Positions 18,701 to 20,902 of a stretch of 29,595 nucleotides of DNA are shown piece by piece. The stretch is from sequence record DRR378314_1653; one strand, given 5' to 3'. How positions within the stretch are numbered: the first letter of the stretch is position 1; every line of letters begins with the position of its first letter. The position numbers were made by a program, and so were the translations under genes. A model generated the notes under the pieces. It searched no databases, had not been told where the DNA came from, and saw only the letters and a program-made list of their open reading frames with translations.

Positions 18701-20902
18701 GACACCACCCGCTATAACATCACCACGGATGTTAACGGTGATGTCAGCACCACAGAGGTGGATGCCCGTGCCGGCACCCTGACCCAGACCTCGGCCGAAG
18801 GCCGGGTGGTTGCCGAAGTGGTGGACCCGAACACCCTGCTCACCCAGGGCATCTCCGTGGCCGGAATGCTGGACACCGTGTTTGAATACGACCAGCGTGG
18901 CCGCCTTGTTGAACAGGCGGTGGGTGACCGGAGCACGACCTACAGCTACGACAGCGAAGGCCGCGGCCAGGTGACGGCGATCACTGCCGCTGATGGTAAG
19001 CAAACACTTTACGAGTACGACCTGCTGGGCCGTGTTACCAAGGTCACCTACCCGGATGGCCATGCCACGCTCAGCGAGTACGATGAGAATGGCAACCGAA
19101 CCACACTCGTTGTGCCGACCCCGGCCGACCATGACAACACGTTCAACGGCATCAACCGGGTCACCTCGGAATCCACTCCGTTGGGTGAGACGACCCAATA
19201 CGAGTACGACCGTGATCGTCGCCTGACAGCCATTGAACTGCCATCTGGAGAGAGGCTTGAACACACCTACACCCAGAACCGACTGACCCGAACCGACACG
19301 CCGGAAGGGCCGATCCTCTACGCCTACCACCATGGCGACCAGCTCAGCCAGGTCAGCGAAGGCAGTGAAACCCTTTCCTACACCTGGGATGGCAGCCTGC
19401 TGAAGGAAGCCTGGTACCAGGGTGAACTCAACGAAGGCATCCAGTACGGGCACAACACCAACTTCCAGGTCGGTCAGGTGACCTATGCCGGTGACAGCAC
19501 CAACCTGACCTACGACCGCGACGGCCTGCTAACCGGTATCCACGGCTTCACCATTGGCCGTCACGCGGACCATGGCCTGCCGGTAAGCCTGGACGATGGC
19601 ACCCTGAACAGGACGTTTGGCTATAACGGCCACGGGGAAGTCACCGACGTCAGCACCGAGCTGAACCAAACCACAGCCTTCGACTACGAACTGGTCTACA
19701 ACAGCGTTGGCCAGATCGTCGGCAAAACCGAAACCCTGCCGAGCGGAGAAATCAACGAATACGGCTACACGTACGACGACCGCTACCGCCTGACCGAAGT
19801 AACGAAGAACAGCCAACTGGTGGAGCAGTACCAGTACGACGCCAACGGCAACCGAACCCTGGCCACCAGTATCGAACGAGGCGTCTCGGGTGTTTCCGCC
19901 AGCTACAACCTGGGTGACCAGCTGCAAAGCCAGGGCAACACCAGCTACAGCTACGATGCTAATGGCCGTTTAAGCCAAACCACTACGGGCACGGACGTCA
20001 CCACCTACGAATACGACAGCCAGGGCCGGCTCAAACAGGTACAGACGCCGGAACACACCATTGAGTACCGCCACAATGCCCTGGGTAACCGGGTGGCCAA
20101 GGTCAAAGATGGTGCTGTGGTAGAGCGCTACCTGTGGCAGGACAAGACCACGCTGCTGGCCACCTACGACGGGGATGACAACCTCAAACAGCGTTTTGCA
20201 TACACGCTGGGCCATGCCCCCACAAGCTTTACCGAGAACGGCAACACCTATTACTTGCTGACCGATCAACTGGGGAGTCCAAGGGTCATCACTGACGGCG
20301 CCGGGCAGGTCGTTAAAGCAGTTGAGTACGATGCCTATGGCAATGTGATCAGCGACAGCAATCCGAATATCACGATTCCCTTCGGCTTTGCGGGAGGCTT
20401 AAAAGATAGCGATACCGGGCTGATCCGGTTTGGGTATCGGGATTACGATCCGGAAACAGGGCGCTGGACGGCACGGGACCCGATTGGTTTTGCGGGTGGG
20501 GATACGAACCTTTATGGGTATGTTCTCGGAGATCCGGTGAATTGGATAGATCCGAAAGGGCTGCAATCTTTCGATGTTGCTGCAGACTTCGGTTTCAATG
20601 GGGGAAGGCTTCCACAATCTAAAGTTGAAGCGGACAATATGAACAACTTGCCTGATAGCTATAATCTTTTGCCGAAATACGCAGAAGCTTGGGGGATGGT
20701 TACGTTAGGTGGGGGCGGGGGTGGTGCCACTCTGCTTAAGTTGTGCAAAGTCGTATCGAAAAACCCCGACGCTTTTATTGAGATTGCCACTGAGCTGGCC
20801 GAAGTTCTTGGGGGAGACCCATCTGATCCACAATCAAAAATCAACAAGATGGGAGAGTATCACCAACATCGGACAGAGATTCACGCACCGAGGCCTAAAT
20901 GA
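9764..20902 (+). CDS. Giant (3712 aa) secreted teneurin-like RHS/YD-repeat polymorphic toxin/adhesin
   Basis: Uninterrupted ORF. Sec signal aa1-29 (ADA). Four RTX/haemolysin Ca-binding-related modules (~9854-11850), 2 Ig/cadherin-like (~11948-12485), 2 DUF1566 (~12524-13430), 4 PKD-like (~13436-14465), CAP-like (~14580-15190), Big_2-like (~15310-15555), carboxypeptidase-regulatory-like (~15660-15900), FN-plug-like (~16586-17150), 2 DUF1566 (~17177-17968), YD repeats (~17993-20400), RHS core ending [10 protein letters not shown] (20534-20563), 112-aa C-terminal tip. Confidence 0.9.
   Translation: [3712 protein letters not shown]
9854..11850 (+). repeat. Diverged intragenic tandem duplication A1-B1-linker-A2-B2 of RTX/HCBP-related modules
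   Basis: A1 [38 protein letters not shown] vs A2 [38 protein letters not shown]; B1 [40 protein letters not shown] vs B2 [40 protein letters not shown]. Confidence 0.85.

Follow-up and report, generated by a model that had tools for sequence, protein, structure and literature searches.

The DNA considered here, a window of 29,595 nucleotides from sequence record DRR378314_1653, contains a marine bacterium's gene for a giant protein that forms a shell, with 3712 amino acids and a swappable C-terminal tip of 112 residues, followed by a gene for a 233-residue partner (Table 1). Co-inheritance of tip and partner, purifying selection, the homologues found and the swapping of tips together make it very likely, judging from sequence, that the two form a new toxin-immunity pair. 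The initial annotation had described an intact RHS autoprotease motif followed by a 112-residue cargo, and this is exactly what we find; position 20477 falls on the codon of D3572 in the protease, and the tip itself begins at 20564. Its proposal of a new small toxin family is backed by the same lines of evidence, whereas the case for membrane activity is weaker than it held. It did not cover the teneurin-like scaffold, the replacement of the NHL propeller by Lcl_C domains, or the candidate role of Cys61 as a probable tether, all of which are described below.

Table 1. Features of the tip, the partner gene and the carrier, with positions in the window
Feature	Position	Strand	Basis
Tip Q3601-K3712, 112 residues, putative toxin of a new family	20564..20902 (codons 20564-20899, stop 20900-20902)	+	Homologue searches, dN/dS
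Stretch A42-L58 of the tip, uncharged and Gly-hinged, with Gly6 at 20708-20725	20687..20737	+	
Basic helix (K59, C61, K62, K66), turn P68 and acidic helix (D69, E73, E77)	20738..20812	+	Alignment columns; low-confidence helices
Invariant Cys61 of the tip (C3661)	20744-20746	+	Alignment columns
Putative immunity gene, 233 residues, ATGA overlap with the tip stop	20899..21600	+	Homologues, co-occurrence
Hydrophobic segment of the partner, then invariant WWRY	about 21409-21495	+	Hydropathy, alignment
Teneurin-like RHS/YD protein, 3712 residues	9764..20902	+	Pfam, NCBIfam, PDB sequence searches
Teneurin TTR-like domain, residues 1961-2042	15644..15889	+	Pfam PF25020, E 1.9e-6, above cut-off
C2275-T-G2277-S2278: Cys of the FN-plug, with a second site of self-cleavage predicted between G2277 and S2278	16586..16597	+	Alignment to PDB 9ifo, E 9e-32
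Two Lcl_C-like domains, residues ~2506-2734, at the canonical NHL position	17279..17965	+	Pfam; BLAST
YD shell and RHS core, residues 2736-3600, zero Cys	17969..20563	+	Pfam, NCBIfam, Cys count
RHS aspartyl autoprotease R3559, D3572, D3596; predicted cut after L3600	20438..20563	+	Ungapped alignment to PDB 9pt5/9ifo

The tip, its family and its partner gene

No confident match of the tip to a known toxin family, or indeed to any family, was found in Pfam, NCBIfam, PADLOC, PHROGs or PDB sequences, and judged against these its sequence defines a new family. Pfam gave two stray matches among the tip homologues (E 0.03 and 0.2, in a single homologue each), and the best PDB sequence match of the tip was a designed four-helix bundle (E 0.0014). 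A search of 1.84 billion representatives returned five matches at E<=0.001, of which two are real and three are repeats; the low-complexity repeats P0009-P0011 were removed before alignment, and L002 was discarded as an unrelated protein. The resulting family is small, with identities of 38-86% and a length of 112-128 residues in all members. Its closest member is the M. salexigens tip (86% identical; the same tip in L003 and P0004), followed by an orphan module of genome G070 (L006, 50%), P0025 (49%), P0007 (47-50%) and P0008, a fragment (38-41%). P0007 is an NHL-type protein, and the family is spread over two scaffold types plus orphan modules.

A profile search across 263 genomes from the M. 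salexigens family placed the tip in 2. Weak matches (E 0.01-0.05) in 39 of these genomes were rejected, as the six loci inspected encode what we take, from their motifs, to be five crotonase-like proteins and one chemoreceptor-like protein. Among 401 order-level genomes the tip profile found the centre genome alone, viral contigs gave nothing, and plasmids gave nothing for either tip or partner. Judged by title, none of the papers listed on Marinobacter, Rhs and polymorphic toxins is about the present system, and a motif search of the sequence file of a paper on teneurin-like proteins (TLPs; PMC13018210) returned no tip members, although gaps can hide motifs in such a search.

The partner follows the tip closely. 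The two genes are adjacent, with a 4-base overlap, in all four distinct DNA contexts counted (the window, L001, L003 and L006; P0007, P0008 and P0025 are outside the count). Partner homologues are 68% and 35% identical and 233-237 residues long, and the gene has a GC content of 0.378. It occurs in 3 of the 263 family genomes, namely both tip carriers and G159, whose copy of the partner is broken and which gave no tip. In G159, one locus near a contig end (L047, G159:C33) has the broken partner copy with no tip upstream, and the last part of that copy lies on another contig (L049/L013, G159:C31), directly before an Rhs fragment. Among 400 scored class-level genomes, the partner profile found the centre genome and one stop-ridden match at E 0.009. 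On these sequence data the pattern is that of a cognate immunity gene. Homology between tip and partner was tested and rejected.

Relative to M. salexigens, the ratio of nonsynonymous to synonymous substitution rates (dN/dS) is 0.107 for the tip and 0.24 for the partner (Fisher p ~1e-13 or lower), and the tip is thus under purifying selection. This bears on the idea that the tip, far from being a selected domain, results from a frameshift or is a tail in decay, an idea that we find scarcely credible. The G-rich run at 20708-20725, an overlapping 68-residue frame at 20709-20915 and the low fold confidence of the tip model could be taken to favor it, but it is already contradicted by the selection acting in the tip's own frame and by independent contigs free of indels, and the narrow range of lengths in the family also speaks against it. 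Nor is the tip an artefact of assembly, since two public contigs cross the entire stretch with no indel, 0 differences are seen in a third piece (20651-21215), and M. salexigens has Gly7 where the window tip has Gly6.

Tips unrelated to the present one sit on cores that are 73-88% identical (in G124, G136, G177, G209 and G235), with identity collapsing at the cut site, and one exchanged tip occupies the same genomic site (L042). Similarly, P0007 and P0012, which are mates in a 90% cluster, have different tips, and a contig of run X6 departs from the window at 20527. By these sequence comparisons the tip is exchanged among close scaffolds, as expected of an RHS/YD polymorphic toxin. In several relatives (L035, L036, L037, L038, L041 and L042), arrays of orphan core-tip-partner modules lie behind the main gene; they carry several different tips with one common hydrophobic, Cys-bearing N-terminal prefix, and neither the window nor M. 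salexigens has such an array. Unnamed Rhs tips are common, and a new tip alone would be a modest finding; what the locus offers is a small putative toxin-immunity pair that is under selection, has natural variants (38-86% identity) and is cheap to test.

The carrier protein

The 3712-residue protein begins with a hydrophobic, Sec-signal-like N-terminus (judged by eye) and contains RTX/HCBP, Ig and PKD adhesion domains, four Lcl_C-like domains in all, the TTR domain, a TIP-like region, the FN-plug, the YD shell, the RHS core and the tip. The part from TTR through FN-plug, upstream of the shell, aligns to residues 488-755 of PDB 9ifo (E 9e-32) and has matches to teneurin plugs, with a Pfam FN-plug score of 22 that is under the cut-off of 27.8; the YD shell and RHS core score above cut-off with PF05593, PF25023 and TIGR03696. 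An alignment of the RHS core with the solved TLP of Bacillus inaquosorum (BiTLP; PDB 9pt5 and 9ifo) is free of gaps (E 8e-40). R3559, D3572, D3596 and L3600 correspond to R2103, D2116, D2140 and the cleavage residue L2144 of BiTLP, whose catalytic roles and cut site are given in PMC13018210; the predicted cargo is therefore Q3601-K3712. By sequence, the bipartite DPxG...DPxG autoprotease is complete, with its catalytic Arg and two Asp. Likewise, C2275 and the predicted cut between G2277 and S2278 are the counterparts of BiTLP C719 and G723/S724, with the Cys shifted by two residues, and this motif is identical in 5/5 Lcl-type scaffolds.

BiTLP thus shares with the present system the TTR domain, the TIP-like region, an FN-plug with a Gly-Ser cut site, the YD shell, the bipartite DPxG protease and its three catalytic residues, a tip of ~12 kDa, one Cys each in plug and tip, and a downstream cognate gene. 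Unlike BiTLP, the present carrier has two Lcl_C domains in place of NHL and an RTX/PKD-type N-terminus, the tips are dissimilar past the cut site, and the long hydrophobic hairpin that can be seen by eye in the BiTLP tip is absent here.

No NHL propeller was found between FN-plug and YD shell, where residues 2431-2759 gave Lcl_C matches only, whereas P0007 gave TEN_NHL and NHL matches, and the BLAST alignment of the carrier to P0007 breaks between residues 2451 and 2736. Four full-length scaffolds (L037, L039, L040 and L043) align across the Lcl_C region and have the same Cys layout. By its sequence, then, the carrier belongs with the teneurin-like proteins, its NHL propeller being replaced by two Lcl_C domains; it would work like a TLP while lacking one defining TLP feature, and it looks like an undescribed variant of these proteins. 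None of the literature matches listed reports such a swap, with coverage being thin for subscription papers. The carrier breaks the published rule of an invariant arrangement of FN-plug, NHL propeller and YD shell, and a search demanding all three together would miss it. Two further Lcl_C-like domains lie at residues 954-1218. At the N-terminus, the RTX-like Gly/Asp repeats and HCBP (window 9764-11900) stand behind the apparent Sec signal peptide, the RTX-like repeats are not placed near a C-terminal type I secretion signal, and residues 320-390 form an acidic, Gly/Cys-rich linker.

This architecture is relevant to the idea that the tip is not antibacterial, and is instead a kin-recognition or signalling peptide, or one acting on eukaryotes, with the partner as its receptor or chaperone. 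The carrier is rich in adhesion and Lcl_C domains, and Legionella Lcl is reported to bind sulphated glycans (PMC11162425). Furthermore, in PMC13018210 a communication role is left open and only 3/9 TLP tips tested inhibited E. coli, the other 6/9 being non-toxic to it, a result that also weighs against the explanation that we favor. Nevertheless, swapped tips, orphan arrays of tips and partners, and a partner decaying on its own are characteristic of polymorphic toxin-immunity systems, and the existence of a dedicated cognate gene suggests that the cell itself is at risk; we therefore consider a non-antibacterial role improbable.

Cysteine pattern and a possible tether

The carrier has 18 Cys, and apart from C2275 and C3661 the other 16 fall, going by position, into presumed local pairs. 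C2275 lies within two residues of BiTLP C719 in the alignment, and C3661 is invariant in the tip family. All 5/5 Lcl-type scaffolds have one plug Cys, four Lcl Cys, zero shell Cys and one tip Cys, a pattern that makes C2275 and C3661 the candidates for a plug-to-tip disulfide. In PMC13018210, a disulfide between the tip and plug residue C719 is reported for BiTLP alone. For the present scaffold, we consider it fairly probable from this layout that Cys61 tethers the tip to plug Cys2275.

A wider count points the same way. The number of Cys is odd in 20/20 teneurin-type tips (17 with exactly one) versus 3/18 other Rhs tips, a contrast inflated by the fact that Rhs tips assembled in the cytoplasm are Cys-poor. 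By family, the figures are 9/9 versus 3/14 (Fisher p 0.0003), from loci mostly of one bacterial family that were picked by similarity to this core. The odd-Cys tips are in L006-L016, L036-L038, L042, P0007 and P0012; class was assigned from a motif in the core, full scaffolds were read for only 10 proteins, and the count left out tips missed by the pattern or running off the locus. In five NHL-type scaffolds, the plug region has at least two Cys, which could pair mutually, so the parity is clean for the Lcl type only. With these points weighing against it, the odd-Cys pattern still suggests a general plug-to-tip disulfide in teneurin-type tips. If the BiTLP disulfide is such a general tether, the release of TLP cargo from the shell becomes directly testable.

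The same residue could instead be catalytic, with the tip being a Cys-dependent enzyme whose active site comprises C61, K62 and E77, all three of which are invariant in 5/5 members. This seems quite improbable, since the odd Cys is found in teneurin-type tips whatever their family and is better explained by the scaffold than by catalysis; in addition, the tip has no invariant His, and C61 is located mid-helix in the weak tip model.

Mode of action

In line with the initial annotation, which had seen no HNH, deaminase, ADP-ribosyltransferase or colicin nuclease motif, the tip gave no profile match to known enzymatic tips of these types or of the peptidase type, and no conserved catalytic motif. 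None of its 22 invariant columns is His, Asp or Arg, which makes the usual nuclease, deaminase, ADP-ribosyltransferase or peptidase chemistry unlikely. The tip is predicted to be all-helical by AlphaFold2 at low confidence (predicted local distance difference test, pLDDT, 45.3). No Foldseek match reached E<=0.001 and no VIA match reached Z>=8 (the best being 4.0); with a model this poor, such blanks show neither novelty nor absence. The ESM Atlas offered leads of 0.82 only.

Action on membranes is, in our view, the best single mechanism that the sequence suggests for the tip, held with somewhat less than even confidence. Hydropathy, moment and uncharged runs were compared with 80 soluble control windows from proteins of the same window. 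The A42-L58 run comprises 17 residues without charge, and 0/80 controls have one as long; in 4/6 tip members the run has 17-19 residues and exceeds all 80. After it come a basic stripe (59, 62, 66/67) and an acidic stripe (69, 73, 77), mirrored about P68 and kept in 5/5 members. The hydrophobic segment of the partner, described below, also counts in its favor, as do the all-helical prediction and the lack of invariant His, Asp and Arg. For BiTLP, PMC13018210 describes a tip that permeabilises E. coli only with a signal peptide.

Several observations weigh against this mechanism. An Arg interrupts the apolar run in 2/6 members (L006 and P0025). The charge stripes were noticed post hoc and without a control, and soluble helical hairpins often have them. 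The peak 19-residue hydropathy (KD19) of the tip is 1.08, a value reached by 39% of the soluble controls, and with a range of 0.77-1.47 no helix of transmembrane grade, for which the rule of thumb is a KD19 of 1.6, was found across the family; glycine-zipper tips on sister scaffolds score 1.5-1.9. The tip is also hydrophilic overall, with a grand average of hydropathy of -0.48 and a net charge of -3, and its hydrophobic moment is equalled or exceeded in 51% of the control windows. Consequently, the features on which the initial annotation had based membrane activity carry less than it supposed. The Gly6 apolar stretch is real as an uncharged run, but Gly6 is reduced to an invariant GG across the family and was dropped as a motif; the amphipathic helix is present, but its moment is ordinary and does not count as membrane evidence; and HQH is not conserved in the family and was ruled out as a metal site. 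Membrane activity itself is still plausible. The reported drift toward A/T is seen against the shell, as the GC content at third codon positions is 0.455 in the tip versus a mean of 0.73 (minimum 0.62), but the N-terminal half of the same gene is near the tip (0.53-0.54), and values equally low occur in 5.7% of 349 scaffold windows.

The partner had been called a membrane-type protein, which fits one hydrophobic segment; the rest is mostly soluble and helical, and the whole is untypical of membrane immunity proteins. The segment is found near residues 171-199 in 4/4 homologues, with a KD19 of 1.68-2.05 versus a control 90th percentile of 1.38, and is followed by WWRY. Basic residues on both of its flanks suggest that both ends face the cytoplasm, and the partner is probably, on this evidence, membrane-associated on the cytoplasmic side. 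It does not match a small two-helix integral membrane immunity protein, having 233-237 residues and one hydrophobic segment. This also weighs against an ionophore, as the known immunity proteins to ionophores are membrane hairpins of two helices and 72-100 residues (PMC11630599 and, for Tsi5, PMC9637101). For P0018, the label "2TM effector domain" given by its source was rejected, since only one hydrophobic segment was seen. The partner model is all-helical (AlphaFold2, pLDDT 46.5) and poor, so that the lack of Foldseek matches at E<=0.001 and of VIA matches at Z>=8 shows neither novelty nor absence; the ESM Atlas gave no leads for it. A by-eye resemblance to Sel1/TPR proteins was set aside, with Pfam giving no match at E<=10.

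These properties of the partner lend themselves to a different reading of the same pair, in which the tip would work in the cytoplasm, either bound to an essential protein or through an enzyme fold that escaped recognition, the Gly-hinged stretch merely helps it across the membrane, and the soluble helical domain of the partner sequesters the tip at the inner face. The hydropathy of the tip is like that of soluble proteins, and 15 of its 22 invariant columns lie in the N-terminal 42 residues. The partner has ~170 soluble residues and shows no signal peptide to the eye, its low-confidence model gives only generic matches to alpha-solenoids (Z up to 6.5), and its hydrophobic segment has the basic flanks just described, all of which fit a cytoplasmic target too. 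On the other hand, the invariant columns lack His, Asp and Arg, the uncharged run is unusual, and hydrophobic tips of the glycine-zipper type are frequent among the sister tips of these scaffolds; we regard a cytoplasmic target as somewhat unlikely.

Returning to membrane action, known systems offer partial likenesses. Pseudomonas aeruginosa Tse5-CT/Tsi5 (PMC9637101) also combines a small RHS-released tip without an enzyme motif with a membrane-associated immunity protein, but it uses type VI delivery, Tse5-CT has transmembrane regions and Tsi5 has two predicted ones; a comparison of PDB sequences gave no match between Tse5-CT and the present tip. The contact-dependent inhibition ionophores Ntox25/EC93 (PMC11630599) share all-helical polymorphic tips and cognate-specific, fast-diverging immunity, but they are five-helix membrane-spanning bundles with very hydrophobic immunity hairpins, unlike the present hydrophilic tip and its partner of 233 residues. 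Nearer at hand, tips that we label glycine-zipper-like, on sister Marinobacter-family scaffolds (L011, L012, L014, L042 and P0012), share the core class, one Cys per tip and a Gly-rich apolar segment; unlike the present tip, they have a KD19 of 1.7-1.9, different partners and separate BLAST families.

Taken as a whole, the explanation that we favor, and hold tentatively, is that of a membrane-damaging cargo that is cut free, tethered and provided with an antidote. By analogy with the solved Bacillus homologue, the carrier would be exported, cut itself twice, and encapsulate and tether its cargo. The tip would be cut free inside the shell after the intact RHS self-cleavage motif and held there by the Cys61-Cys2275 disulfide. 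The anatomy of the tip suggests that, after release, the Gly-hinged apolar stretch (42-58) could dip into the bilayer, while the basic helix (59-66) and the acidic helix (69-80) would pair their charges and the hairpin would be buried, in the manner of a charge zipper, an idea for which we found no fitting literature source. Oligomers of the tip might then leak ions across the inner membrane of a rival, and the membrane-associated partner would bind the tip as antidote. That all parts of a more detailed proposal hold jointly (an Lcl-for-NHL sub-lineage, a general redox-released disulfide between lid and cargo, a hydrophilic hairpin ionophore with paired charges, and helical membrane-anchored immunity) is unlikely.

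Neighbouring genes

No promoter or terminator signals above shuffles were found, and no RNA carrier of the sequence was listed. Behind the partner, at 21907-23472, lies a gene for a DUF4124 and TPR protein with a lower GC content (0.53), which is also present behind the same scaffold in G235 but does not follow it in M. salexigens. The flanks (1483-9366 and 23526-29595) hold housekeeping-like genes by Pfam, namely a Na/H exchanger, a pyridine oxidoreductase, TetR, an FMN/4Fe-4S regulator, two methyltransferases, ArsR-AHSA1, an ankyrin protein, a LysR/PBP regulator and the beginning of an operon like that for a formate or NADH dehydrogenase.

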